Below, in pieces: positions 2,532 to 23,816 of a DNA stretch of 24,000 nt. The DNA is from Clostridium scatologenes (GTDB lineage Bacteria > Bacillota > Clostridia > Clostridiales > Clostridiaceae): positions 1,770,577 to 1,794,576 of the forward strand of contig NZ_CP009933.1 of assembly GCF_000968375.1 (NCBI RefSeq), given 5' to 3'. Numbering within the stretch: position 1 is the first letter of the stretch; each line of letters begins with the position of its first letter. The notes under the pieces were generated by a model, which was given only the letters and a program-made list of their open reading frames with translations, ran no database searches and was not told the origin of the DNA. The translations under genes and the position numbers were made by a program.

Positions 2532-3401
2532 TTACTTAAAGTATAATTCCTTAACTTCTTTTGCTGGCATTTCTAATCCAGTATATAACTTAAAGGCTTC
2601 TGCTCCTTGCCATAATAACATTCCTGTACCATCTACTGTCTTACATCCAGCAGCTTCAGCATCTTTTAAAAACTTTGTTTGTTTTGGATTATATACTGTA
2701 TCTGACACAACTAAATCTTTTCTAAAAACTGAATTATCTTTTATTGGAGATTCATCTTCATGAGGGTGCATTCCTACTTTTGTTGCATTTACTAAAATAT
2801 TAGAAGATGCAATTTTTTCTCTAAGTTTTTGTCTATCTTCTAAGTCATACAACTCTACAACACACTGTGGCACTTCTTGCTTTAATTTTTCAATAGTTTC
2901 TTCAGCTCTTTTATAGAAATCATCCTTTATATTAAATATGGAAATTTCCTTAGCTCCATCTAAAGCACATTGTACTTGAATAGCTGTTGCAGCACCACCT
3001 GCACCAATAATAGTTATATTTTTACCTTTTACCTCTACTCCATTTTCATTTAAGCTGCGCACAAATCCAACACCATCTGTAATATTTCCAGTTAATTTAC
3101 CATTGTTATTGACAATAGTATTTACTGCTCCTACTATACGAGCAGCTGGAGATAGCTCATCCATATATTTAACTACTTCACTCTTACATGGCATTGTGAC
3201 ATTTGACCCTTTAATATTCAAAGTCTTAATAGCTGCAATAGCATCAGGAACTTTTTCTAAAGAAATGTCAAAGGCTAAATATGCAGAATCTATTCCTGTT
3301 TTTTGAAAGCTGTAATTGTACATAGCAGGAGATCCTGAATGTCCTACTGGTGTACCTATTAAACTATATAAAGCTGTTGTTCCTGAAATTCTTTTTTCCA
3401 T
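2532..3401 (-). CDS. Quinate/shikimate 5-dehydrogenase, YdiB-class paralog (289 aa)
   Basis: SDH-family motifs are present: GHSGSPAMYN, GSNVTMPCK, GAVNT and the GAGGAATA glycine loop. The loop is followed by FNIKDDF; an acidic residue after the beta-strand suggests NAD preference, as in YdiB. It aligns without gaps to the 7597-8469 paralog. Confidence 0.9.
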   Translation of the reverse strand: MEKRISGTTALYSLIGTPVGHSGSPAMYNYSFQKTGIDSAYLAFDISLEKVPDAIAAIKTLNIKGSNVTMPCKSEVVKYMDELSPAARIVGAVNTIVNNNGKLTGNITDGVGFVRSLNENGVEVKGKNITIIGAGGAATAIQVQCALDGAKEISIFNIKDDFYKRAEETIEKLKQEVPQCVVELYDLEDRQKLREKIASSNILVNATKVGMHPHEDESPIKDNSVFRKDLVVSDTVYNPKQTKFLKDAEAAGCKTVDGTGMLLWQGAEAFKLYTGLEMPAKEVKELYFK

Positions 3402-3438
3402 AATGTAAGCCCCCTAAAATTGTTATATTGCTATATCA

Positions 3439-5373
3439 TTATATTTGTAATGCTGCATCTAGCGCTTCTTTTGTTGCATCTAATGCTCTACGTGCTCTTG
3501 TTGCATCTCCAATAACATAAGTTTCTTTTACAACTTTTTTAACTTCTTCACTTAATGGATCATAGTTACGTGATCCCATAGCAAGAACTACTGAATCAAA
3601 ACCATGAGCACTTTGTCCTACTCCATCTGCAAGTGTATAATCTACGCCGTCTTCAAAGAATTTTGCAACTTTTGCTCCTGTAATAGTTTTAATTTTATAT
3701 TCATCAAAATCTTTCATTAAATATTTGCGGTGTTCTGATATTACATCAGCTCCTACTTCATCACGAAGTTCTACAACAGTAACATCATGTCCAAGTTCTC
3801 CTAAGAAAGCAGCTGTTTCACATCCAACCATACCGCCTCCTACAACAAGAACTTTTTTTCCACAAACTTCTTTTCCATCAAGAAGATCAACTGCATGGAT
3901 CAATCCAGACTCATTGATTCCTGGTATAGGAAGTACAAGTGGTGTTGCTCCTGTAGCTAAAATTACTGCATCAGGTTTTTCTTGTGATATTATTTCAGGA
4001 GTTACCTTTGTATTCATATGGATTTCCACGCCATATTTGTTACATTTATTGATATAACTGCGTACCATATTTGTAATGTCGCCTTTTCCTGGAGGATAAG
4101 CTGCTAAACGCATTTGTCCACCAAGTGTATCAGTTGCTTCAAACAATATTACATCATGGCCTCTCTTAGCACATACCCATGCTGCAAGCATGCCACCAAC
4201 TCCGCCTCCAACAACTACTACTTTTTTACTAGTATCTGCTTGTTTTAACTCATCTTCTCTTCCAAGTAGTGGATTAACAAGACAAGTAATTGGATTTCCT
4301 TGATACATGTTGCAAACACATCCTTGTAAACAAGCAATACATGGAGTTAATTCATCCAAGCATCCAGCTGCAGCCTTATTAGGTGTTTCTGGATCAGCTA
4401 AGCTTTGACGTCCAAAGGCTACTAAATCACATCTTCCTTCACGAACTAATATTTCTGCATAATGTGGTTCTGTAAAACGTCCTACAACAATAACAGGAAT
4501 ATTTACTGCTCTTTTTATTTCTGTAACTAATTCAGCATTAAAGCCGCCATGTATAACTGTAGGTGCCCACATATATTCATCTTTAAGATGTACAGCACGT
4601 GAAACATGAAGTCCATCAATACCACACTCTTCTAAATAAGCAGCAATTACTGCACTATCGTGAACATCTAATCCACCTGCAACTTCATCACTAGAATTTA
4701 TACGGCATATAATAGCTATAGAATGTCCAACTTTTTTTCGAATATTTTCAATAACTAAACGAGGAAGTCTCATTCTATTTTCAAAGCATCCTCCAAATTC
4801 ATCTACACGTTTGTTTGTTCTTGGAGATAGGAAACTACTAATTAGATATCCATGTGCACAGTGTACTTCTACTGCATCAGCTCCAGCTTTCTTCGCACGT
4901 ACTGCTGCATCACCATATGCTTCAATTAATTCATAAATTTCTTCAGTAGTCATTGCTTCAGGTATATTACGACCTAATGCTGATGGTATTGCTGACGCAG
5001 ATTTTAATGGATATCCAGCAACTTTTGCATTACCTTCAGGTCCTGCATGTTGAAGCTGAATAGATATTTTAGCACCATTTTCATGACAAGCGTCAATGAC
5101 ACGTTTAAAGCTTTCTACTGTACTATCATCAAATAAGCAAGGTTTTCTAGGACCTCCCTTAGCTTCTTTATGCACAACTGTAGCTTCAAAAGTTATTAAT
5201 CCAAAACCACCTTGAGCACGTTTACTATAATAGGCCAATGATTTATCACTCATAGTTCCATCTGTATTTGCAAAATTGTTTCCCATAGGTGAAACAACAA
5301 AACGATTTGGAACTGTCATTGGACCAATTTTTATCGGAGCAAACATGGATTTAAACATCATAAAAAATCTCAT
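3439..5373 (-). CDS. 2-enoate reductase / 2,4-dienoyl-CoA reductase-like flavoprotein (OYE FMN domain + [4Fe-4S] + FAD/NAD(P)H domain, 644 aa)
   Basis: The N-terminal OYE TIM barrel shows PMGNN, HCAHGYLISSFLSP and RxNxRxDEFGG motifs. The Cys cluster is CIACLQGCVCN...C. Two Rossmann GxGxxG motifs are present (VVGGGVGGM and VVGGGMVGCE). The true start may be one of the internal Met codons at 5361/5358 (MMFKSMF...). Confidence 0.9.
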   Translation of the reverse strand: MRFFMMFKSMFAPIKIGPMTVPNRFVVSPMGNNFANTDGTMSDKSLAYYSKRAQGGFGLITFEATVVHKEAKGGPRKPCLFDDSTVESFKRVIDACHENGAKISIQLQHAGPEGNAKVAGYPLKSASAIPSALGRNIPEAMTTEEIYELIEAYGDAAVRAKKAGADAVEVHCAHGYLISSFLSPRTNKRVDEFGGCFENRMRLPRLVIENIRKKVGHSIAIICRINSSDEVAGGLDVHDSAVIAAYLEECGIDGLHVSRAVHLKDEYMWAPTVIHGGFNAELVTEIKRAVNIPVIVVGRFTEPHYAEILVREGRCDLVAFGRQSLADPETPNKAAAGCLDELTPCIACLQGCVCNMYQGNPITCLVNPLLGREDELKQADTSKKVVVVGGGVGGMLAAWVCAKRGHDVILFEATDTLGGQMRLAAYPPGKGDITNMVRSYINKCNKYGVEIHMNTKVTPEIISQEKPDAVILATGATPLVLPIPGINESGLIHAVDLLDGKEVCGKKVLVVGGGMVGCETAAFLGELGHDVTVVELRDEVGADVISEHRKYLMKDFDEYKIKTITGAKVAKFFEDGVDYTLADGVGQSAHGFDSVVLAMGSRNYDPLSEEVKKVVKETYVIGDATRARRALDATKEALDAALQI

Positions 5374-5414
5374 CCTTTCATTTTTTGAAATCCATTAAAA
5401 TTTATAATATATTA

Positions 5415-6269
5415 CTATTTTGCATTTGGAGAAACTTCTGGCCAAGCTTTATCTAATACTTTTATAGTATTGTCATATGTGTGCTTAGCTGCTTCAGCAA
5501 CACCTTTTTCTAAAATAGCATCACTTATTACTTCAACACCAATACATGCAGGTTTTATACCTTTTTCTTTAATCATTTGAACAAAACCTTCTGTCACATT
5601 AATTCCAGTGCCTGGTGCAAGTCTGTCATGCATTGATTCATCTCTTAATATAGATTTTGCATAAGGTCTTTCATAAACATCATTGATCTGGATGGATACA
5701 ATTTTATCAGCTGGTATACCTTCTAATAATTTAATATCATTTTCCTGATTTGCTCTTGCCCAATGCCATGTATCTAATATAAGTTTAGCATTGTCGCAGC
5801 CAGAAGCTTTAACTACTGCCCAACCTTTTTTAATATCTTGAACACCACTGTATGGCATAGGTTCTAAACCAATAACATACTTACCAGCTCTTTGACATAA
5901 TTCTTTTAACTTTTGTGCAGTATGTTCAACACTATAATCTTCCATTAATCCAATATTTATGTGGTTAACACCAAATAATTCACACATATGGAAACACATT
6001 TGTTCTTTATATTTTTCTTCATAAGAACGATTATCTTCAGCCCAAAGTGTAATATATTCAACTTCAGTAACCTTCATATCATATTTTTTAAGAATATCAA
6101 GTATATCAGCATCAAATAAACCTTCATTTAATGCATCTACATATGTTTCAGCACGAAGACCTATTCCTTCATAACCTGCTTCTTTTGCTGCTTTAACTCT
6201 TTCTTCAAATTTACATTGATCTCCTAATGTCCATGAACTAACTGTAATTGGTGGGCATTGATTTTTCAT
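5415..6269 (-). CDS. Xylose isomerase-like TIM-barrel (sugar phosphate isomerase/epimerase superfamily) protein; candidate 3-dehydroshikimate dehydratase or IolE-like ring dehydratase
   Basis: The ORF-track start at 6287 is a TTG without an SD. The ATG at 6269 (MKNQCPPITV...) has SD GAAAGGGG 7 nt upstream. The ILDTWHW and DRLAPGTG motifs are typical of this fold. The specific function is inferred only from the adjacent dehydroquinase and quinate dehydrogenase paralogs. Confidence 0.75.
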   Translation of the reverse strand: MKNQCPPITVSSWTLGDQCKFEERVKAAKEAGYEGIGLRAETYVDALNEGLFDADILDILKKYDMKVTEVEYITLWAEDNRSYEEKYKEQMCFHMCELFGVNHINIGLMEDYSVEHTAQKLKELCQRAGKYVIGLEPMPYSGVQDIKKGWAVVKASGCDNAKLILDTWHWARANQENDIKLLEGIPADKIVSIQINDVYERPYAKSILRDESMHDRLAPGTGINVTEGFVQMIKEKGIKPACIGVEVISDAILEKGVAEAAKHTYDNTIKVLDKAWPEVSPNAK

Positions 6270-6393
6270 GATATTATCCCCTTTCAAATGAAAAATTGTT
6301 ATTAATTTAGCTTAGTTTTTAATTTATGTATTGAAGTATTTAATAAATTAATCAAGTTAGTTTCTACCGGTAGTTTCCTATTAAAATAGGCCT

Positions 6394-6426
6394 AATTTCA
6401 ATTAAGTAATCGATTTAATTGAAATT
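6394..6426. promoter_or_regulatory. Perfect 12-bp inverted repeat in the divergent control region (candidate operator)
   Basis: AATTTCAATTAA-gtaatcgat-TTAATTGAAATT. The 12-mer ATTAAGTAATCG (6401-6412), which runs from the end of the left arm into the spacer, recurs at 9335-9346 in the second divergent region. Confidence 0.35.
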
Positions 6427-6464
6427 TATAAACTCATTATATTATATAAATTTTCATAAAACAA

Positions 6465-6516
6465 ATTGATAATTTCCTATCAATTCATAGATTTTATGTA
6501 TAGTTTATGTTATAAT
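6465..6516 (+). promoter_or_regulatory. Putative lysR-1 promoter with an overlapping LTTR-box-like palindrome
   Basis: Palindrome ATTGATA-N6-TATCAAT at 6465-6484. The -35-like TAGATT lies at 6488-6493, followed by a 17-nt spacer. The extended -10 TGTTATAAT has its TATAAT at 6511-6516. Confidence 0.4.
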
Positions 6517-6544
6517 TGTGCCAATAATATTTTGAAAGCGAGGC

Positions 6545-7435
6545 ATGAAATTGAATTTATATCATTTACGCTATTTCGTAACTCTAGCACACTTAGAACA
6601 TTACACAAGAGCTGCTGAGAAATTAATGATTACTCAGCCAAGCTTGAGCCATGCAATATCCTTATTAGAAAATGAACTAGGCATCTCTTTATTTGAAAAA
6701 GACGGTAGAAACATTGTACTTACCAAATATGGAAAAGTATTTTTAAATAATGTAGAAAAATCCTTAGAAATTCTTGATTCTAGTGTTAAAACTTTAAAAC
6801 TTATTGGCAGTGGTGAAGGTAAAATTCAGCTAGCCTTTCTTCGCACATTAGGAACGGATTTCGTACCAGATATTACTCGAAAATTTCTAGAAACTCATAG
6901 TGAAAAATCAATAGAATTTAATTTCAACACTATAGCAACTTCTGTTGATATTATCCAAGGTCTCAAGGAGAGAAAATACGACATTGCTTTCTGCTCGAAA
7001 ATCGGTAAAGAACAAGGTATAGAATTTATACCAGTTGCTAACCAAGAGCTAGTACTAATTGTTCCTACTGACCATCCACTTGCAGATAAAAATTCAATTG
7101 ATTTAATTGATACAATCCCGTACCCTCAAATTTTTTTTACAAGCAAAAGTGGACTTAGACCTATAGTTGATGATTTGTTTACACAAATCGGTAAAGAACC
7201 CAAAATTGTTTATGAAGTTGAAGAAGATCAAGTAATTGCTGGACTTGTTGCTAAAAATTTTGGCATTGCAGTTTGTCCTAACATGCCTATTTTGAATTCC
7301 ATGGATTTGAAAGTAATTAAAATTTCAAGTCCAAATTTTGAAAGACTATTTTATTTAGCAATGTTGAAAGATGCTTACCTTGCACCAGTTGTTCATGAAT
7401 TTAAAAATTTTGTTATAGAAAATACTGAAATATAA
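6545..7435 (+). CDS. LysR-family transcriptional regulator (paralog 1)
   Basis: N-terminal wHTH LRYFVTLAHLEHYTRAAEKLMITQPSLSHAISLLENELG plus a C-terminal substrate-binding domain. It is divergent from the 6269-1135 gene set. Confidence 0.95.
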   Translation: MKLNLYHLRYFVTLAHLEHYTRAAEKLMITQPSLSHAISLLENELGISLFEKDGRNIVLTKYGKVFLNNVEKSLEILDSSVKTLKLIGSGEGKIQLAFLRTLGTDFVPDITRKFLETHSEKSIEFNFNTIATSVDIIQGLKERKYDIAFCSKIGKEQGIEFIPVANQELVLIVPTDHPLADKNSIDLIDTIPYPQIFFTSKSGLRPIVDDLFTQIGKEPKIVYEVEEDQVIAGLVAKNFGIAVCPNMPILNSMDLKVIKISSPNFERLFYLAMLKDAYLAPVVHEFKNFVIENTEI

Positions 7436-7471
7436 AGTTTAGTTGTATTATATGTATACAAAATCTTATTT

Positions 7472-7525
7472 CAGAGGACAATTGACAAAGATCATCCTTC
7501 ATTGTCATCTGTCAATTGTCCTCTG
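7472..7525. terminator. Large GC-richer hairpin between convergent genes (putative bidirectional terminator or palindromic element)
   Basis: Perfect 16-bp arms CAGAGGACAATTGACA (7472-7487) / TGTCAATTGTCCTCTG (7510-7525) with a 22-nt loop. There is no clean U-tract on either side. CCTCTG is duplicated directly after the 3' arm. Confidence 0.5.
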
Positions 7526-7596
7526 TCCTCTGAAAAAGTTGTGTCGCATTATCCTCATATTAAATCTAAGTTTTGTATATATCAAAATTGAATTAA

Positions 7597-8469
7597 TTAA
7601 TATTTAATGTTTAATACTTTTTTCATGTGTTCTATAGGCATTTCTTTTCCAGTCCATAGTTTGAAAGCTGCTGCTCCTTGGAATAACATCATTCCAAAAC
7701 CATTCATTGTTTTACAGCCTACTTCTTTTGCCATTTTTAACAATGCTGTTTCTGCAGGTGCATAAACTGTGTCTGTTACAATTAAATCTGGTCTTAAGAA
7801 GCTTGGATCTGGAATATAAGTTTGACCTTCTAAAGGTTTCATTCCAACACCAGTTGCATTAGCAAATAAATAGCTATCTGCAATTTCCTCTTTTAATTTT
7901 GCAAGATCATCTAAATCATATAAAGTTGCTTTACAGTTAGTTTTTTCATTAATATCTTTTACTGTTTTCTTTCCTCTTTCGAAGAATTCATCCTTACGGT
8001 TAAATATTGATATTTCTTTCACTCCATCTAAAGCTGCTTGTATTTCTATTGCTGTAGCTGCTCCACCTGCTCCTGCTATTGTTATTTTCTTACCAATAAC
8101 ATCAATTCCAGCATCTTTTAATGATTGCATATAACCAATACCATCTGTGATGTGTCCAGTTAAAACACCATTATCATTTACAATTGTATTAACTGCACCG
8201 CAAAGTTCTGCTGCTTCTGATAACTTGTCAAGATACTTATGTACCACTGTTTTATTTGGCATTGATACATTTGATCCACGAACTTTCATTGCTCTGAAGC
8301 CTTTTATGGTATCCTCTAATTGTTCATTACCTACTTCAAATGCAAGATAAGCATAATCCAAACCTAATTTTGCAAATGCTTCGTTGTGCATTGCTGGTGA
8401 ACTTGAATGTCTAATTGGGTATGCTATTAATCCTATAAGTTCTGTGTGCCCTGTAATTCTTTCTGCCAT
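7597..8469 (-). CDS. ydiB: Quinate/shikimate dehydrogenase, YdiB-like (290 aa)
   Basis: From memory it is closely similar to E. coli YdiB over its full length (YPIRHSxSPxMxN, GSNVSMPNK, GAVNTIVND, GAGGAATA, FNRKDEFF, GMKPLE, GCKTxxGxGM). It lies immediately downstream of aroD. SD AGGAG is present. Confidence 0.92.
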   Translation of the reverse strand: MAERITGHTELIGLIAYPIRHSSSPAMHNEAFAKLGLDYAYLAFEVGNEQLEDTIKGFRAMKVRGSNVSMPNKTVVHKYLDKLSEAAELCGAVNTIVNDNGVLTGHITDGIGYMQSLKDAGIDVIGKKITIAGAGGAATAIEIQAALDGVKEISIFNRKDEFFERGKKTVKDINEKTNCKATLYDLDDLAKLKEEIADSYLFANATGVGMKPLEGQTYIPDPSFLRPDLIVTDTVYAPAETALLKMAKEVGCKTMNGFGMMLFQGAAAFKLWTGKEMPIEHMKKVLNIKY

Positions 8470-8526
8470 AATAATCGTCTCCTTTATATTTAATTTATAT
8501 TTTTATATAGTTTTTTATTATAATAA

Positions 8527-9294
8527 CTATTTATTAGCACTAATAAGTGAAAGTATTTTGTATAATTCATTTGCTTCTAATTGTCCTGGAGCTGATGCAA
8601 CCTTTGCTGATCCAAAAGTAAGCGCTGATCCAAAAGTTTCACCTGCTAAACGACTTATAACTCCTAGTGGTCCCATAGACATAGTTATAATCGGTGTTTT
8701 ATCATGATCACGTGTCATTTCATTTGTAGCTGTCAATAATTCAATTACATCTGTGCTACTTAAAGGCATTACTGCTATCTTAGGTACATCTGCTCCTAAT
8801 TCTTGCATTTTGCACAATCTTGCTATTATTTCATTTTTGCTAGGTGTTTTATCAAAATCATGATTAGACATAACTACTTTTACATCATGTTCATGTGCCA
8901 CTTTTACAATTTTCTTTACGGCTTCTTCATCACCAATAAATAACTCCACATCAATCATATCTGCATTGCCTGTTGCTGATATTGCCTTTTGTAATTCTAT
9001 ATAATATTCTAATGTAATTTCCTTTGCTCCACCTTCTTTAGCACTCCTAAAAGTAACTAACAAAGGTGTATCTCCTAATGCTTTTCTAACTTCAGCTAAA
9101 ATTTCTTTTACTTTTTCAATTTTATATACGTCTTCGTAAAAATCTATTCTCCATTCTGCAACATCCAATTTAATTTCTTTTAAATAAGAAACATCCTTCA
9201 TAATTTCTTCATTGCTGCATCCCATGAATGGCACTGCTATTTTGGGAATTCCCTGACCTAATTTCATATTTCTTACTTGAACTATACTTTTCAT
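8527..9294 (-). CDS. aroD: 3-dehydroquinate dehydratase, type I
   Basis: 255 aa, the typical type I length and layout. Family motifs AEWRIDFY, LVTFRSAKEGG, SNHDF and KIAVMP (Schiff-base Lys region) are present. Confidence 0.95.
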   Translation of the reverse strand: MKSIVQVRNMKLGQGIPKIAVPFMGCSNEEIMKDVSYLKEIKLDVAEWRIDFYEDVYKIEKVKEILAEVRKALGDTPLLVTFRSAKEGGAKEITLEYYIELQKAISATGNADMIDVELFIGDEEAVKKIVKVAHEHDVKVVMSNHDFDKTPSKNEIIARLCKMQELGADVPKIAVMPLSSTDVIELLTATNEMTRDHDKTPIITMSMGPLGVISRLAGETFGSALTFGSAKVASAPGQLEANELYKILSLISANK

Positions 9295-9329
9295 TTTTTA
9301 CTTCCTTTCTTAACTTTTTAAATTATTGA

Positions 9330-9355
9330 TTAAGATTAAGTAATCGTTATCTTAA
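9330..9355. promoter_or_regulatory. Inverted repeat centred on TAAGTAATCG upstream of aroD (candidate operator)
   Basis: TTAAGAT-taagtaatcgtt-ATCTTAA. It shares the 12-mer ATTAAGTAATCG with 6401-6412, in the same orientation. Confidence 0.3.
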
Positions 9356-9538
9356 AGAATTAAAAAAATTATTACTTATAAATTTTAACAGATAATACTG
9401 TACAAAACACTACATAATAAAAGCTTTTCTACTATAATTGTATATTATATAACAGTTTAGTTATTTTTTTAACATATCTTGACTTTATTATACTGCAATA
9501 CATTTGATAATTCTAATACATATTTTTATGATTATTAA

Positions 9539-9567
9539 TAGTTTTTATCTATCAATTATGATATACT
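9539..9567 (+). promoter_or_regulatory. Putative lysR-2 promoter
   Basis: TAGTTT (9539-9544), a 17-nt spacer, then extended -10 TGATATACT (TATACT at 9562-9567). The spacer contains the palindrome TATCA-ATTA-TGATA. The layout aligns with the other two lysR promoters. Confidence 0.4.
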
Positions 9568-9597
9568 ATGTATTATTCTATTTAGGAGGACTACTCT

Positions 9598-10494
9598 ATG
9601 AACTTAAGCCAATTATACTATTTCAGAAAAATTGCTCAATTAGAGCACTTCAGACAAGCAGCTTTAGAATTAAATGTATCTCAACCTAGTTTAAGTAAAT
9701 CAATGCTAAATTTAGAATCAGAACTGGGTATTTGCTTATTTGATAAAGAAGGAAGAAATGTTCATCTAACTAAGTATGGCAAAATTTTTTTACAATATGT
9801 AGAAAATATTTTAAACGAATTAGAAAATGCCAAAAATAAGATGAATCAATTAGCAAGCAGTGAACATGGTCATGTTGATATAGCATATATTTCGCCATTA
9901 GCACAATATTATATACCTGATACAGTGCGTAGTTTTTTAAATATAGAACAAAATAAAAATGTTACTTTCACATTTAAACAAGGTTTTTCTTACGAAATGA
10001 TAGAGGAACTTAAAAATGATAAATATGATTTAATTTTTTGTTCTCACATAGAAAATGAACCTGATATTATGTTTGTTCCAATTATTAAAAAGGATTTATT
10101 TGTTATTGTTCCTTTTGATCATCCGCTTTCAAAATTTGAAAGCATTGATTTGAAAGATATTGAACCATATCCTTTAGTAGCATATGATAAAACTTCTGCT
10201 ATGGGAAAAACTACTTTAAAATTATTGAAAAGTATTAATTTGAATCCAAAAATTATTTGTGAAGCTGCTGATGAATATGCTATTTCTTCACTAGTTGCTG
10301 CAAACTTTGGAGTAGCTATTATAGCTGAAGCGCCTGCTCTTGCACATGCTAAAGTAAAAAAAATAAACATCAACAGCCCAAAATATTCTCAAATAATATA
10401 TCTTGCATATAAAAAAAATAAGTATTTTCCTTCTGCTGTTATTAATTTTATTTCATATATAAAAGAAAAAAGTTCTGTAAGTGAATCACTATAA
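9598..10494 (+). CDS. LysR-family transcriptional regulator (paralog 2)
   Basis: wHTH LYYFRKIAQLEHFRQAALELNVSQPSLSKSMLNLESELG. SD AGGAGG lies 9 nt upstream. It is divergent from aroD-ydiB. Confidence 0.95.
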   Translation: MNLSQLYYFRKIAQLEHFRQAALELNVSQPSLSKSMLNLESELGICLFDKEGRNVHLTKYGKIFLQYVENILNELENAKNKMNQLASSEHGHVDIAYISPLAQYYIPDTVRSFLNIEQNKNVTFTFKQGFSYEMIEELKNDKYDLIFCSHIENEPDIMFVPIIKKDLFVIVPFDHPLSKFESIDLKDIEPYPLVAYDKTSAMGKTTLKLLKSINLNPKIICEAADEYAISSLVAANFGVAIIAEAPALAHAKVKKININSPKYSQIIYLAYKKNKYFPSAVINFISYIKEKSSVSESL

Positions 10495-10499
10495 AAATA

Positions 10500-10534
10500 G
10501 CCGATTAAGGTAAAATCAAATCACCTTAATCGGC
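10500..10534. terminator. Bidirectional intrinsic terminator between lysR-2 and the second enoate reductase
   Basis: 12-bp perfect stem GCCGATTAAGGT / ACCTTAATCGGC with an 11-nt loop. T-runs follow on both strands (ACTATTTTT on plus, CTATTTTTA on minus). Confidence 0.75.
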
Positions 10535-10558
10535 ACTATTTTTACTTAATTTAAATTA

Positions 10559-12565
10559 TTACTTAAATGCACCCATAACCTCTAAAGTTTTAACTACATT
10601 TCTCCCCTCTTCAACACCAGATATTATTCTTCTTGCTCTTACACTATCACCAATGTTAAGAAGTTTTACATTATTTTCTGAAGCATACTCTTCAACCATA
10701 GGGAATTCAGCATTTTCTGATCTCATTCCTAGGCATACAAAACCATAGTCGAAGTTTATATCTACAGCAGCTCCTTCAGGATTTTTCACTGTAAACGAAC
10801 TATCATTAACAGTCTGAAGTGCAGTATTTGCAAGCTGTTTAACATTATTTACTTTCATCATATGATATACATCAAGCTTTGTATTAGTATCTAAATCTTT
10901 TCCTATTACTGGCATCATTTCAATGACATCAACATCTGCTCCTCTTTCAGCAAAGAATTCTACAACATCAAGTCCTACTGCTCCTCCGCCTACTACTACA
11001 ACCTTTTTATCTTTACAGTCTTTATCAAACTCTTTGATATTATTAATAAATCCAAATGTTGATTTGACATTTGATCCAGCTTTATCTACACGATCCAACA
11101 ATCCTGCTATTGGAGGAAGTAATGGTTTTGATCCTGTTGCATTTATTATAAGGTCTGGATTTAATTCATCTAGTACTTCCTTTGAAGCTTTTGTATTAAG
11201 TTTTATTTTAAGGTTAGGAAGTTCCTTTACTCTATTTTGTAAATATTCTACAAAATAATGAATTCTTGCTTTTGCTGGAATTGTTCCGATCATCCAAGCT
11301 AAACCGCCTAATCTATCCTTTTGTTCTAATAGTGTCACATTACAACCTACTTCTGCAGCAGTACAGGCAGCTTCCAGTCCTGCTGTACCTCCACCAATAA
11401 CTACAACGTTAACAGATTTCTTTACTTGTTTTTCTTTATAAGCATCTTCAAATAAAAGATCTGGATTTATACTACAACGAATTGGTTGTGATTTTGCTAA
11501 ACGATGATCAGCACATCCTATATTACAAGATATACATCTTCTAAGAAGGTGCTCCTGTCCATCCGCAACCTTATTAGCCCAATATGGTTCTGCAATTAAA
11601 CCACGACCCATAGCTAGAAGATCTGCATCTCCTTTAGCAATAATTTCTTCAGCAACTTTTGGGGAACGAATGTTTCCTGAAGTTATTACTGGTTTATTGA
11701 ATTTTTCTTTAAAAGCTTTAGCCATATAGCTTCTCCAGCCTTCTGCTAAACTCATTTTATCATGTTGAAGATATAAAGTATCATTTTGTGCTATAGAAAT
11801 ATTTAGGAAATCTACTTTTTCCTGCATATATCCCATCAATTCTAAAGAATCTTCAAGAGTATTACCTCCCTCAATCATATCATCCGCACTAATTCTTATA
11901 GAAATTGGAAACCTAGGACCAACTGCAGCTCTCACACTATCTATAACCATTACAGCAAATCTTGCTCTATTTTCAGCACTTCCACCAAATTCATCAGTTC
12001 TATCATTAAATAAAGGTGATAAGAATTGATTAAGTAAATATGAATGACCTGCATGAATTTCAACTGAATCAAATCCTGCTAATTGAGCTCTTGCAGCAGC
12101 TTCTCCATATTTTTTTGCAATATCTTTCATTTCCTCTACAGTTAAAGGTCTTGGAATTGCTCCACCTGTCTTTGAAGGAATATTAGAAGCAGAAACTGCT
12201 TGTACTCCATCTAATCTTGCAGCATAAGCAGATGCTCCAGCATGGTTAAGCTGAATTGAAACTTTAGCTCCATAAGCATGAAGTCTTTCCACTAATGTAT
12301 AAAGTCCAGGTACATATTGGTTATCATCAATTCTGCACTGCTTTGTTCCGTTAGTTCCCATTGGAAAATCAATACAAGCATTTTCAACTATGATAAGTCC
12401 TGTACCACCTTTTGCTCTTAATTCATAATATTTAATCATCTCTTCAGATACTTCTGCACTAACAGTAGCAAAATTACTACCTATTGGTGGCATAACAGTC
12501 CTATTTCTAAGAGTCATTCCATTTATAGTAATTGGTGACAAAAGATTTGGATATTTGCTTTTCAT
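10559..12565 (-). CDS. 2-enoate reductase / 2,4-dienoyl-CoA reductase-like flavoprotein, second paralog (668 aa)
   Basis: OYE-domain motifs PPIGSN, HAGHSYLLNQFLSP and NDRTDEFGG are present. The [4Fe-4S] motif is CISCNIGC-x11-C. Two GxGxxG motifs are present (VIGGGTAGLE and VVGGGAVGLD). SD GGAGG is present. Confidence 0.9.
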   Translation of the reverse strand: MKSKYPNLLSPITINGMTLRNRTVMPPIGSNFATVSAEVSEEMIKYYELRAKGGTGLIIVENACIDFPMGTNGTKQCRIDDNQYVPGLYTLVERLHAYGAKVSIQLNHAGASAYAARLDGVQAVSASNIPSKTGGAIPRPLTVEEMKDIAKKYGEAAARAQLAGFDSVEIHAGHSYLLNQFLSPLFNDRTDEFGGSAENRARFAVMVIDSVRAAVGPRFPISIRISADDMIEGGNTLEDSLELMGYMQEKVDFLNISIAQNDTLYLQHDKMSLAEGWRSYMAKAFKEKFNKPVITSGNIRSPKVAEEIIAKGDADLLAMGRGLIAEPYWANKVADGQEHLLRRCISCNIGCADHRLAKSQPIRCSINPDLLFEDAYKEKQVKKSVNVVVIGGGTAGLEAACTAAEVGCNVTLLEQKDRLGGLAWMIGTIPAKARIHYFVEYLQNRVKELPNLKIKLNTKASKEVLDELNPDLIINATGSKPLLPPIAGLLDRVDKAGSNVKSTFGFINNIKEFDKDCKDKKVVVVGGGAVGLDVVEFFAERGADVDVIEMMPVIGKDLDTNTKLDVYHMMKVNNVKQLANTALQTVNDSSFTVKNPEGAAVDINFDYGFVCLGMRSENAEFPMVEEYASENNVKLLNIGDSVRARRIISGVEEGRNVVKTLEVMGAFK

Positions 12566-12814
12566 TTTTCTTCCTCCATTTTATACCTATTTTATCTTTA
12601 TATAGTAGAATTTAGAAACAACATGGAAAGTGTTTTCTTAACATATTGCATTTATATCGTGTTTGTATCAAGAATTGGATTTTCACTACATTAAATACTT
12701 TTTTATCAATACAACTAAACTTAAATGAATGTGTTTGTTAATTAACATTTATCTCGTGATTCATTATAGCAAAACCGTTATCATAAATCTAATTCATATT
12801 TTCCTTTAAAGCTA

Positions 12815-12844
12815 TAGAATTTATTTATATATTCTATTATAATG
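12815..12844 (+). promoter_or_regulatory. Putative lysR-3 promoter with an embedded inverted repeat
   Basis: TAGAAT (12816-12821), a 17-nt spacer, then TATAAT (12839-12844). The inverted repeat ATAGAAT-N10-ATTCTAT (12815-12838) spans the -35 element and the spacer. Confidence 0.4.
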
Positions 12845-12912
12845 AGTACTATAAACGATTAAAATTTCTAAAAAAAGTAGTAAAATAACAATATAGAAAG
12901 AGGTGAATTTAA

Positions 12913-13824
12913 ATGAATTTGAAACAGCTTCAATACTTTCGTATTTTAGCACAAACTGAGCATTACACAAAAGCAGCTGAAAAATTATACATAACACAAC
13001 CTAGTTTAAGTTACAGTATTTCAGAATTAGAGAGGGAATTTGGTACTCAATTATTTGAAAAGGAAGGTAGAAATGTAAAACTGACAAAATACGGACGCTT
13101 TTTTCTTTCTTATGTAGAAAAAGCCCTTGATGAATTGGATTTGGGTAAAAATCTATTGTTAAAAATGGTAAGCCCTACGGAAGGAAAGGTTGACCTAGCT
13201 TTTATTTACACTTTAGGTTCCAAATTTGTACCTAACATAGTTCAAAGCTTTTTAAATGAAACTAGTTATAAAAATGTAGAATTTTCTTTTGCTCAAGGAA
13301 ACACTCAATATTTAATTAATAACCTTAAAGAAGGAAAATTTGACCTGGTTTTTTGCTCTTTTGTTGAAAATGAACCAAATATTGATTTTATTCCTATAGC
13401 ACAAGAAGAATTAGTTATAATTGTACCTAAAGATCATCCTCTTTCTAATTACAAAAGTATAAGTTTAAATGAAACTTCACCTTACCCTTTTGTTTTCTTT
13501 AGCAACGAAAGTGGTTTGCGCCCACTTATAGACAAAATGTTTAAAGATTCAAATATAGTACCTAAAATTGCATGTGAGGCTGAAGAGGATACTGCTATAG
13601 CTGGCTTTGTGGCTATCAATTATGGAATAGCAATTATTCCTAATATACCATCTTTAAAAAATTTTGATGTAAAAATACTTAAAATCAAACAACCAAATTA
13701 TAAAAGATTTATTTATGCAGCTACCGTTAAAAATCGTTATAACACTCTTGCTACAGATTCTTTTCGTTCATTTGCAATTAAATATGGTAAAAAAAATTAT
13801 TTAGACACAAATAAGTACATATAA
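12913..13824 (+). CDS. LysR-family transcriptional regulator (paralog 3)
   Basis: wHTH LQYFRILAQTEHYTKAAEKLYITQPSLSYSISELEREFG. SD AAGAGGTG is present. It is divergent from the 10559-12565 reductase. Confidence 0.95.
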   Translation: MNLKQLQYFRILAQTEHYTKAAEKLYITQPSLSYSISELEREFGTQLFEKEGRNVKLTKYGRFFLSYVEKALDELDLGKNLLLKMVSPTEGKVDLAFIYTLGSKFVPNIVQSFLNETSYKNVEFSFAQGNTQYLINNLKEGKFDLVFCSFVENEPNIDFIPIAQEELVIIVPKDHPLSNYKSISLNETSPYPFVFFSNESGLRPLIDKMFKDSNIVPKIACEAEEDTAIAGFVAINYGIAIIPNIPSLKNFDVKILKIKQPNYKRFIYAATVKNRYNTLATDSFRSFAIKYGKKNYLDTNKYI

Positions 13825-22385: not shown

Positions 22386-22574
22386 TAAATAATTTTATCT
22401 TTTTTAATATTATGATTTTTCATATATACTTAGTTCAATATTTTATATTCTATTTACTAAAGCATAACAACTACTATATTAAAGCAAGAACCAGCTTTTA
22501 TACGCGATGCTAACTATTTTTTTGTACATGTTGTAATTTGCTTTAAATTGAAAAATTTTAATAACAATTGAGCT

Positions 22575-22602
22575 TTGTACTTTTTTCATTATATGGTATA
22601 AT
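22575..22602 (+). promoter_or_regulatory. Putative promoter of the small hydrophobic protein gene
   Basis: TTGTAC (22575-22580), a 16-nt spacer, then TGGTATAAT (TATAAT at 22597-22602). Confidence 0.35.
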
Positions 22603-22684
22603 ATACTCCATAACACATGGTGAATTACTCTTTTATGTGTATAATTTAAAAAATATAAATATATCAATTAGGAGGTTTATTTTT

Positions 22685-22891
22685 ATGATAATCTTAACAA
22701 TACTTTTATCTGCTGTAGTATTCATTCTTTTGGGTTCAGTAATTGCTGCAGTAGCACTACCTATATTTGCTTTTATTTTTGCTATAGGTATAGTAATTTC
22801 AATTTTAGCACTAATATTTAAAATAATTTTTGCTGGACCTTTATTTATTTTAATGATAATTATAGCATTATATTATTTTTTCAAAAGATAA
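22685..22891 (+). CDS. Small hydrophobic membrane protein (68 aa, about two TM helices)
   Basis: SD AGGAGG lies 8 nt upstream of the ATG at 22685. The sequence is MIILTILLSAVVFILLGSVIAAVALPIFAFIFAIGIVISILALIFKIIFAGPLFILMIIIALYYFFKR. A strong terminator follows. The upstream part of ORF-track entry 22568-22891 has no SD. Confidence 0.6.
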   Translation: MIILTILLSAVVFILLGSVIAAVALPIFAFIFAIGIVISILALIFKIIFAGPLFILMIIIALYYFFKR

Positions 22892-22909
22892 TATAATATT
22901 ATAATAAAT

Positions 22910-22949
22910 AAGACTTTGCAAATTAAATGCAAAGTCTTATTTTTTTTTT
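22910..22949 (+). terminator. Intrinsic terminator
   Basis: AAGACTTTGCA-aattaaa-TGCAAAGTCTT followed by a T10 run (22940-22949). Confidence 0.85.
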
Positions 22950-23019
22950 AAAAGTTGTAACTATTTTTTACTTTCTTAATACTATATATAGTGAAGATAG
23001 ATTTTACGGAGGTATGTAC

Positions 23020-23706
23020 ATGTACTATCAAAATGATAGCGAAAATACTAATACTGATATTGACATTGATATGGATCAAAGTCGTCATCATCATCACAGA
23101 CGTGATTGTTGCTGTATGCCATTTTTCCCTTGGATGGGCGGTTGCTCTCCTTGGTTTGGCGGCTGGGGTGGTTGTTCTCCTTGGTTTGGTGGTGGCTGTG
23201 GCTCTCCTTGGTTTGGTGGTGGCTCTCCTTGGTTCGGTGGTGGATTCCAAGGTGCCGGTGCTCAAGCAAGTTGTTCTTGTGGCGCTGGAATGCGTGGTGA
23301 AGATCTAGATATTGACATGGATCAAAGCCGTCACCATCACCACAGACGTGATTGCTGCTGTATGCCATTTTTCCCTTGGATGTGCTCACCTTGGATGTTA
23401 TCACCTTGGATGAACTCACCTTGGTTCGGTGGTGGATTTGGATTCCCTACAGCAGGAGCTCAAGCAAACTGTTCTTGTGGAGCTGGAGCAGGATTCCCAT
23501 TCCAAGGTGCCGGTGCTAAAGCAAATTGTTCTTGTGGAGCTGGAATGCGCAGCGAAGATGATGATATTGATATGGATATGGATGAGGATAGATTTTATCC
23601 TTACTACAAATATCCTAAATATCATAAATACCCATATTATCCATATTACCCTTATTACCCTTATTATCCTAAATACCCTTATCATAGAGACTATTTACCT
23701 TTGTAA
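23020..23706 (+). CDS. Low-complexity Cys/His/Trp/Gly/Tyr/Pro-rich tandem-repeat protein of unknown function (possible spore-coat-like structural or metal-binding protein)
   Basis: SD GGAGG precedes ATG 23014 and ATG 23020, and the spacing is better for 23020. The ORF-track start at 22927 lies inside the upstream terminator. The two repeat copies differ only by synonymous changes in their most conserved 66-nt block. No signal peptide is apparent. Confidence 0.75.
   Translation: MYYQNDSENTNTDIDIDMDQSRHHHHRRDCCCMPFFPWMGGCSPWFGGWGGCSPWFGGGCGSPWFGGGSPWFGGGFQGAGAQASCSCGAGMRGEDLDIDMDQSRHHHHRRDCCCMPFFPWMCSPWMLSPWMNSPWFGGGFGFPTAGAQANCSCGAGAGFPFQGAGAKANCSCGAGMRSEDDDIDMDMDEDRFYPYYKYPKYHKYPYYPYYPYYPYYPKYPYHRDYLPL
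23056..23559 (+). repeat. Intragenic tandem duplication (offset about 246-255 nt), plus short SPW(F/M)GG and C-terminal YPYY micro-repeats downstream
   Basis: 23071-23136 versus 23317-23382 shows 4 mismatches in 66 nt. 23251-23304 versus 23506-23559 is also clearly homologous. Confidence 0.8.
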
Positions 23707-23729
23707 ATTAAAGATTCATTCAAATTCTA

Positions 23730-23768
23730 TTAATGGAACGTTTGAAATTTATTCAAATGTTCCATTAA
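23730..23768. terminator. Hairpin between convergent genes (putative bidirectional terminator)
   Basis: 17-bp stem TTAATGGAACGTTTGAA / TTCAAATGTTCCATTAA with one G-U pair and a 5-nt loop. Moderately T-rich flanks lie on both strands. Confidence 0.6.
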
Positions 23769-23816
23769 TATCCTTTTCTAAACAAAATCTATATGATTTC
23801 AGATTATTGATTTAAT

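Follow-up and report, generated by a model that had tools for sequence, protein, structure and literature searches.

A 24,000-nucleotide stretch of DNA from Clostridium scatologenes (RefSeq assembly GCF_000968375.1, contig NZ_CP009933.1, positions 1,770,577 to 1,794,576 of the forward strand; the window) carries at 23020 to 23706 a gene for a protein built from tandem repeats, here called the repeat protein. The gene is real and under selection, and in front of it lies an invariant promoter which statistically matches sigma-K promoters. The coding sequence and its parts are placed as follows, with positions counted in the window and residues as amino acids (aa).

23020 to 23706, forward strand: coding sequence of the repeat protein, 228 codons (aa 1-228), with the stop codon inside the range
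23020 to 23085, forward strand: N-terminal segment, aa 1-22, MYYQNDSENTNT followed by DIDIDMDQSR; this first acidic spacer ends at the invariant S21-R22
23086 to 23301, forward strand: module 1, aa 23-94, with an HHHHRR basic cluster, CCC-MPFFPWM, four (C/G)SPWFGG repeats and FQGAGAQASCSCGAGMRGE
23302 to 23331, forward strand: acidic spacer 2, aa 95-104, DLDIDMDQSR
23332 to 23556, forward strand: module 2, aa 105-179, a duplicate of module 1 with three SPW(M/F) repeats and two AGAxANCSCGAG motifs
23557 to 23592, forward strand: acidic spacer 3, aa 180-191, DDDIDMDMDEDR, terminating in the invariant D190-R191
23593 to 23703, forward strand: C-terminal Tyr/Pro module, aa 192-228, FYPYYKYPKYHKYPYYPYYPYYPYYPKYPYHRDYLPL, to which orthologues add His-rich ends

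The translation of this open reading frame (ORF) agrees residue for residue with an earlier model-made account of the window (the preliminary description), save for one motif. Two units are present, D13-E94 and D95-E179, both of which open with D(I/L)DIDMDQSR and continue with HHHHRRDCCCMPFFPWM; there are seven SPW motifs in total, as had been counted before, and the tail reads YPYYKYPKYHKYPYYPYYPYYPYYPKYPYH. The motif that had been given as GAGAxA(S/N)CSCGAG does occur three times in the form AGAxA[SN]CSCGAG, but the middle copy is TAGAQANCSCGAG and does not have GAGA. Arrays of SPWFGG, SPWM and YPY in the gene were also detected by Tandem Repeats Finder. The 228 residues comprise 33 Gly, 22 Pro, 19 Tyr, 19 Asp, 16 Cys, 15 Phe, 15 Ser, 13 Met, 10 Trp and 10 His and not one Val, and Cys, Met, Trp, Tyr and His together account for 30% of the protein. 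The GC content of the gene is 44%, against 30% for the window.

The gene has its own Shine-Dalgarno (SD) sequence, GGAGG at 23008-23012, 7 nt ahead of the ATG at 23020, and is bracketed by terminator hairpins at 22906-22942 and 23728-23770; both features had been reported before. The N-terminus, MYYQNDSENTNTDIDIDMD, is hydrophilic and, as had been claimed, has no signal peptide. A longer in-frame ORF with a hydrophobic N-terminus can be read from 22927, but it starts within the terminator, lacks an SD sequence and is closed in the orthologues. It is therefore ruled out, and the repeat protein is left without a signal peptide. A single-sequence AlphaFold2 model had a mean predicted local distance difference test (pLDDT) score of 38.6 and no secondary structure; in such a model a low score is what is expected for an intrinsically disordered low-complexity protein, and this one was judged too poor for fold searches.

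The protein had been presented as an orphan. When one genome of each species was scanned, an orthologue in syntenic position turned up in C. drakei SL1 (96% identical by alignment, 91% by the scan itself) and another in C. muellerianum P21 (68-71% by alignments, 56% by the scan). The hydrogenase maturation protease encoded next to the gene has 100% identity to the protein of C. scatologenes, in agreement with the origin of the window, and when homologues of this protease were used as positional anchors, three more orthologues were recovered, of 174 aa (locus L008), 168 aa (L009) and 162 aa (L007). There are thus five orthologues besides the window gene, and the six loci compared throughout are the window, L002, L003 (C. 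muellerianum), L007, L008 and L009. Protein identity across them is 58-96%. The family is narrow, being found in a small group of Clostridium species, and is not a singleton; the scan used exact 8-mers and would miss orthologues of the L007 and L008 types, so that the range of the family may be wider.

All six ORFs are intact and share one frame, counted from the start codon; no frame-disrupting variation is seen in these relatives. Pairwise ratios of nonsynonymous to synonymous substitution rates (dN/dS) are 0.23-0.27 for the repeat gene, compared with 0.03-0.09 for the adjoining aroF, and substitutions between the window and C. muellerianum number 46, 38 and 83 at the first, second and third codon positions. 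The dN/dS values and the third-position excess show that the gene is translated and is under purifying selection, though a relaxed one. The preliminary description had argued for translation and purifying selection, rather than a slippage artefact, from two 66-nt blocks (23071-23136 and 23317-23382) which differ at four positions, all of them synonymous third-codon T/C changes; those four differences were found as described, and the comparison between species bears the argument out. The residues that are invariant in the alignment of the six proteins include M1-D6, S21 and R22.

The repeat number shifts quickly between species. In L007, L008 and L009 there is one unit each, module 2 being missing; two units must therefore have arisen by lineage-specific duplication inside the gene, from an ancestor that had only one. 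In the C. muellerianum orthologue (L003 10001-10789) the two units are 91% identical in DNA over 270 columns and share one perfect stretch exceeding 180 nt; downstream of the core, the units of C. scatologenes and of C. drakei have drifted apart. The near-identity of the C. muellerianum units points to a recent duplication or to gene conversion within the gene, and the unit duplications in C. scatologenes/C. drakei and in C. muellerianum may possibly have been independent events.

The preliminary description had also recommended a sensitive homology search; this matched no known family. Searches of Pfam and NCBIfam gave no family at E <= 1 for any of the six proteins except a spurious Birna_VP5 (E = 0.61), there was no relative in the PDB, and PHROGs and PADLOC had no match for the six proteins. 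Nor did tblastn against plasmids and phages give a match. The pattern CCMPFFPW returned three matches in JGI metagenomes, all by chance (a desaturase and out-of-frame matches), and none in viral contigs; a full-text literature search for YPYYPYYP, CCCMPFF and SPWFGG found no paper. In a large protein collection there were zero matches by a word-indexed protein search, by a three-sequence profile at E <= 10 and by phmmer against 1.84 billion representatives. An exact look-up, however, showed that the six proteins themselves, and the 68-aa protein encoded just upstream, are all missing from this collection of 15 billion sequences; the zero matches there are therefore uninformative about rarity. 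Neighbouring proteins of the same NCBI genomes are present in the collection, and the repeat-protein gene is annotated by the gene callers of the assemblies.

The region between the upstream terminator and the start codon contains the following elements.

22906 to 22942, forward strand: intrinsic terminator of the upstream gene, a 15-bp stem and a T run, which insulates the repeat-protein gene
22950 to 22961, forward strand: invariant block AAAAGTTGTAAC, including the -35 element TGTAAC at 22956-22961 with its AC at 22960-22961; invariant at six loci
22978 to 22985, forward strand: -10 element AATACTAT, of the pattern xATAxxxT, 16 nt past the AC
22988 to 23019, forward strand: 5' untranslated region (5'UTR), 100% identical at six loci, holding the GGAGG at 23008-23012

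The terminator stem is retained in the orthologues by compensated (paired) substitutions. From AAAAGTTGTAAC through the 5'UTR to about codon 8 the sequence is identical at the six loci bar a handful of positions: no change is seen in the -35 block, in ATA and TAT within the -10 element, in the 5'UTR or in the first codons, and the variable promoter bases are those of the 16-nt spacer and positions 1 and 5 of the -10 element, which are uninformative in sigma-K promoters. Transcription is predicted to start at about 22991. The sequence thus has the -35 AC, which in Clostridioides usually stands within G[TA]AAC, a spacer within the 16-18 nt range and a -10 xATAnnnT about 6 nt before the start that mark sigma-K promoters.

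The resemblance to sigma-K elements, which the preliminary description had called loose, was put on a quantitative footing. Two-block weight matrices were made from 25 mapped sigma-K and 47 mapped sigma-E promoters of C. difficile (PMC3789822 Table S7); 44 sigma-F/G promoters (PMC3789822 Table S6) served for comparison of the -35 motif. On the sigma-K matrix TGTAAC-N16-AATACTAT scores 12.95-13.0 bits, where the training promoters have a leave-one-out median of 11.0, and the C. muellerianum promoter scores 10.6 bits; on the sigma-E matrix the repeat-gene site reaches only 5.6 bits. The two boxes are the same as in C. difficile CD1891, whose sigma-K promoter has been mapped, and cotA has an identical -35 box. 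A -35 of the form G[TA]AAC is found in 11 of the 25 sigma-K promoters and in none of the 47 sigma-E or 44 sigma-F/G promoters. The probability of such a score in a random 100-nt region of the window's intergenic composition is 0.008, and a single one of 87 other upstream regions at the studied loci attains it, that of a gene for a major facilitator superfamily (MFS) transporter. The bare pattern AC-N16-xATAnnnTA, on which the earlier resemblance rested, is uninformative, since it occurs 15 times in the window as against about 25 in shuffled sequence; what stands is the above-median matrix match, the class-specific GTAAC and the invariance of just those bases in six lineages.

Two other readings of this region were tried and rejected. 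TGTAAC could be taken as the -35 of an extracytoplasmic function (ECF) sigma factor of the sigma-X-like type, but no CGxC-type -10 follows it, and a structured 5'UTR is not indicated by RNA folding (z = -0.05) or by any Rfam match. The interval 22988-23045, that is the 5'UTR and the first eight codons, is 100% identical in six lineages despite the divergence of the coding sequence, and the start codon sits inside a palindrome, GTACATGTAC. Such invariance suggests an extra constraint, perhaps on how translation begins, on mRNA stability or on a targeting signal at the N-terminus. Elsewhere in the window, a second site matching the sigma-K matrix lies at about 939 on the reverse strand (13.8-13.95 bits), some 60-100 nt upstream of a truncated MFS transporter ORF (840, reverse strand); it is probably there by chance, though the sigma-K regulon of C. 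difficile does include transporters. The highest score in the window, 17.1 bits, is at 9027 on the reverse strand, inside a dehydroquinase gene.

In the mother cell, genes for the coat and the exosporium are transcribed under sigma-K (PMC3789822). The promoter match and its invariance therefore make a protein of the spore coat or exosporium the best reading of the gene, and it is one in which our confidence is about evenly balanced: the repeat protein would be a lineage-restricted, disordered structural protein of the coat or exosporium, made late in the mother cell from a sigma-K-type promoter. That inference, which the preliminary description had drawn mainly from composition, rises with promoter similarity added to it to a hypothesis that has reasonable support.

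Proteins of comparable character are known from both C. difficile and Bacillus. CdeC (CD1067) and CdeM (CD1581) are sigma-K-dependent, Cys-rich C. difficile proteins (PMC3789822), and they and CotA (CD1613) are products of the mother cell destined for the outer layers of the spore (PMC3789822, PMC6101409). The repeat gene shares with this group a GTAAC-type -35, TGTAAC in cotA, and an xATAxxxT -10, and its product is like these proteins in being Cys-rich, without a signal peptide and lineage-restricted. It differs in having no sequence similarity to them and in being dominated by Trp/Gly/Pro/Tyr repeats and Arg-bracketed acidic spacers; furthermore, sigma-K dependence and spore location are demonstrated for CdeC, CdeM and CotA and inferred for the repeat protein. 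Among Bacillus coat proteins, CotT is rich in Pro, Gly and Tyr, YeeK in Gly, His and Tyr, and CotC and CotU in Tyr, Lys and Asp; the YPYYPYY tail of the repeat protein recalls CotT. Like it, these four are small, extreme in composition, probably disordered and narrow in distribution, being confined to one or two species (PMC7725329). They are, however, not homologous to it, are found in Bacillus only and lack CCC/CSC, SPW and the plan of modules and spacers. What appears to be new in the repeat protein is the plan of Arg-bracketed acidic linkers, the motif set CCC-MPFFPWM, SPW, NCSCGAG and YPYY, and growth by whole modules.

Invariant Arg residues stand at the ends of acidic spacers (R22, which follows a Ser, and R191) and in the GMR just ahead of them (R177), giving borders of the form ...GMR|[GS]ED..D(Q/E)SR|HHH... 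and ...DEDR|xYPY.... YabG, a cysteine protease under sigma-K/sigma-E control that is conserved in spore formers (PMC10681294, PMC11195116, PMC13553755), cleaves disordered regions on the C-terminal side of Arg, for instance behind the SR of SRQS in SleC (PMC11195116, PMC10681294, PMC13553755), and it processes low-complexity coat proteins such as CotT and YeeK (PMC13553755). In the repeat protein, Arg at P1 in a chain without predicted structure would offer candidate sites of the YabG type; for CotT and YeeK cutting takes place before or during assembly (PMC13553755), and for the repeat protein it is a prediction. The bracketing of the acidic spacers by invariant Arg suggests excision by YabG, and from this a fuller mechanism can be outlined. 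The precursor would be modular, each module consisting of a basic cluster, CCC-MPFFPWM, SPW(F/M) repeats and CSC, with the YPYY tail to follow, and would be rich in aromatic residues, Cys and His; the strongly acidic spacers would hold these sticky modules apart and keep them soluble. At the spore surface the spacers would be excised by a YabG-type coat protease specific for Arg, after which disulfides (CCC, CSC), cross-links through Tyr and metal coordination by His and Cys would hold the freed modules in place. The repeat protein would then be a new kind of spore-surface "polyprotein": its sticky modules would be inert until YabG removes the spacers, and the two or three pieces so released would assemble and cross-link by themselves, their oxidisable residues also giving the spores of these strict anaerobes a sacrificial shield. 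The family would expand by duplication of whole modules. In this full form the proposal is unlikely. Expression timing, location, processing and cross-linking are all inferred; if excision does take place, it would be a way of assembling spore surfaces that is new in principle, and YabG would gain a novel class of substrate.

Several observations weigh against a place in the spore coat or exosporium. The analogy drawn from composition is weak evidence, and none of the six orthologues shows homology to a coat family (CotD, Coat_F, Coat_X, CotH and CotJ models). As to the promoter, 13 bits is attained somewhere in 38 of 40 shuffled 24-kb windows, and in the real one the repeat-gene site ranks third, two unrelated sites scoring as high or higher. 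Since chance scores of this size are common across a window, the match counts through its position, its class specificity and the coincidence of invariant with informative bases taken together. Furthermore, the matrix comes from C. difficile, which belongs to another family than the host, and the first base of the -10 is A or T and not the classical C; among the 25 sigma-K promoters mapped in C. difficile, however, 10 have A at this position, so the missing C is not disqualifying in clostridia. Finally, the same region may be read, weakly, as a sigma-A promoter, TTGTAA-N17-AATACT, with 8 of 12 consensus bases (9 of 12 in C. muellerianum).

In a different account of the gene, unconnected with spores, a low-complexity protein of vegetative or stressed cells would be made from a weak sigma-A or activator-dependent promoter and might serve inside the cell as a self-associating scaffold or condensate or, given that 30% of its residues are easily oxidised, as a sacrificial oxidant sink. 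We consider this somewhat unlikely. A disordered chain with aromatic "stickers" set among Gly and Pro spacers would suit such a role, and the invariant 5'UTR and first codons hint at further regulation. However, the conserved C of GTAAC lies outside the sigma-A -35 hexamer and is the key base of sigma-K promoters, and the sigma-A match falls below the level listed in the consensus scan. Good sigma-A promoters do exist at this locus: the small membrane gene next door has a conserved TG-extended one at about 22574-22605, TTGTAC-N17-TGGTATAAT, and the unusual boxes of the repeat gene are therefore not simply the promoter style of the species. In addition, we know of no cytoplasmic bacterial protein family of this composition. 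That the ORF is open by chance in repetitive DNA is barely conceivable. The repeats do keep long ORFs open in overlapping frames, and the protein is missing from large collections; against this must be set the six ORFs intact in one frame from the start codon, the dN/dS values and third-position excess given above, the invariant SD sequence and start context, and the annotation of the gene by gene callers.

A role tied to the genes downstream is quite improbable. In five of the six loci (C. scatologenes, C. drakei, C. muellerianum, L008 and L009) the repeat gene lies beside genes for a maturation protease, HypB, HypA and a [NiFe]-hydrogenase, and its product might be a nickel, zinc or copper storage protein or chaperone for this enzyme and for HypA/HypB. 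A His run directly ahead of the Cys triplet, the His-rich tails of the orthologues and a local HypB without a His-rich N-terminus would be in keeping with this, and the first of these features, with the proximity of hyp genes, also recalls Hpn and Hpn-like of H. pylori and the His-rich parts of HypB, SlyD and CooJ. The gene, however, runs towards the hyp genes with a terminator in between and so is not transcribed together with them. The linkage is lost at L007, where aminotransferase and helix-turn-helix regulator genes intervene and the repeat gene stays with the small membrane gene and aroF, and the related hydrogenase clusters L010-L012 have no repeat-protein gene. Moreover, the basic cluster reads HHHHRR, HHRRRR, HRRRRH or GHHRRCRNR across the orthologues, and Arg takes the place of His in the second unit as well, with CC(C) kept; this interchange of His and Arg indicates that a basic patch has been selected and not a His metal site. 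In contrast to the Hpn-like proteins, His and Cys are low, at 4% (10 of 228) and 7% (16 of 228), and the Trp/Gly/Pro/Tyr repeats that make up most of the protein have no role in known metal chaperones. Metallothioneins typically contain 15-30% Cys, few or no aromatic residues and CxC or CC clusters throughout; in the repeat protein Phe, Trp and Tyr make up 19% beside that 7% Cys, and there are two to three such clusters per unit. A very improbable alternative, which had been offered before as a speculation, is a multi-core precursor of ribosomally synthesised peptides, either post-translationally modified (RiPP) or unmodified and rich in Trp and Pro, in which the acidic spacers would act as recognition or pro-sequences and the products would leave the cell when it lyses. 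Here the likeness to cyanobactin-type precursors and radical S-adenosylmethionine (SAM) substrates lies in repeated "cores", Cys/Trp segments held between acidic spacers that end in Arg, and the Cys/Trp-rich motifs resemble the substrates of cross-linking enzymes. Within about 23 kb upstream and about 9-10 kb downstream, though, no radical-SAM enzyme, YcaO or other cyclodehydratase, lanthipeptide synthetase (LanM/KC), multinuclear non-haem iron-dependent oxidase (MNIO), P450, peptidase or dedicated exporter is encoded, and no modifying enzyme, maturase or transporter appears in any of the six neighbourhoods. Over those 9-10 kb downstream, past the end of the window, where modifying enzymes had been thought worth seeking, there are hydrogenase genes and hydrolases. 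An ATP-binding cassette component and MatE/MurJ-type genes do occur at L010, a locus without the repeat gene. The "cores" are long, at 70 residues or more, vary in repeat number and go back to an ancestral form with one unit, and there is no signal or leader of a known type.

For the spore-surface reading, the interest of the gene lies in the organisms that carry it. The outer spore layers of Clostridium sensu stricto are almost uncharacterised, including those of the industrial CO/CO2-fixing acetogens C. drakei, C. scatologenes and C. muellerianum, and the proteins of these layers are not findable by homology to coat proteins of Bacillus or C. difficile. As a candidate the repeat protein has testable features, namely a promoter of sigma-K type and predictions of where the chain is cut and which residues cross-link. 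As the family is missing from the 15-billion-sequence collection, homology surveys, and probably proteomic surveys, would miss it; the combination of promoter matrix, phylogenetic footprint and synteny anchors finds proteins that database and hidden Markov model (HMM) searches overlook.

The features immediately adjoining the gene on either side are these.

22685 to 22891, forward strand: gene for a small, very hydrophobic membrane protein of 68 aa, directly upstream of the repeat gene at six loci
23728 to 23770, forward strand: terminator hairpin with a 19-bp stem, between the repeat gene and the convergent hydrogenase maturation protease gene

The small membrane protein is 68-73 aa long across the loci, has two predicted membrane spans and has no match in Pfam or NCBIfam. 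Upstream of its gene come a divergent aro operon, shikimate/quinate genes, old-yellow-enzyme-type reductases, LysR regulators and an MFS transporter; downstream of the repeat gene, and convergent with it, are the hydrogenase maturation protease, hypB, hypA, the large and small subunits of the [NiFe]-hydrogenase and a cytochrome b5-like gene. In the hydrogenase cluster (L001 1546-5821; also L007, L009 and L010) the cytochrome b5-like gene (PF00173) adjoins that of the small subunit, and HypB has neither a His-rich nor a CxxCGC N-terminus.

The leader of the aro operon occupies 22385-22080 on the reverse strand. It begins with a perfect TTGACA-16-TATAAT promoter (22385-22358), followed by an SD sequence and an ORF of 56 aa (22295-22125, reverse strand) reading MKNIIGKGISGKYYFYFSWGYFYFSAGYFFCKK... 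with 17-19 Phe/Tyr/Trp, and it ends in a strong terminator hairpin (22103-22080, reverse strand) about 170 nt before aroF. The leader ORF and its aromatic run are conserved at five loci (window, L002, L003, L007 and L008), and no T-box or other Rfam match was obtained, even at E <= 1. The arrangement looks like a ribosome-mediated leader-peptide attenuator that would sense Phe, Tyr and Trp; control in Firmicutes is typically by T-box or by the trp RNA-binding attenuation protein (TRAP), and leader-peptide attenuation is unusual there.

Further into the window, 2532-13824 contains two paralogous sets (2532-5373, and 7597-8469 with 10559-12565) of a shikimate dehydrogenase and an old-yellow-enzyme/pyridine-nucleotide-disulfide flavin oxidoreductase, along with three LysR regulators, a type I dehydroquinase and a xylose-isomerase-like TIM-barrel protein. 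These look like duplicated modules for quinate/shikimate utilisation beside the biosynthetic aro operon.

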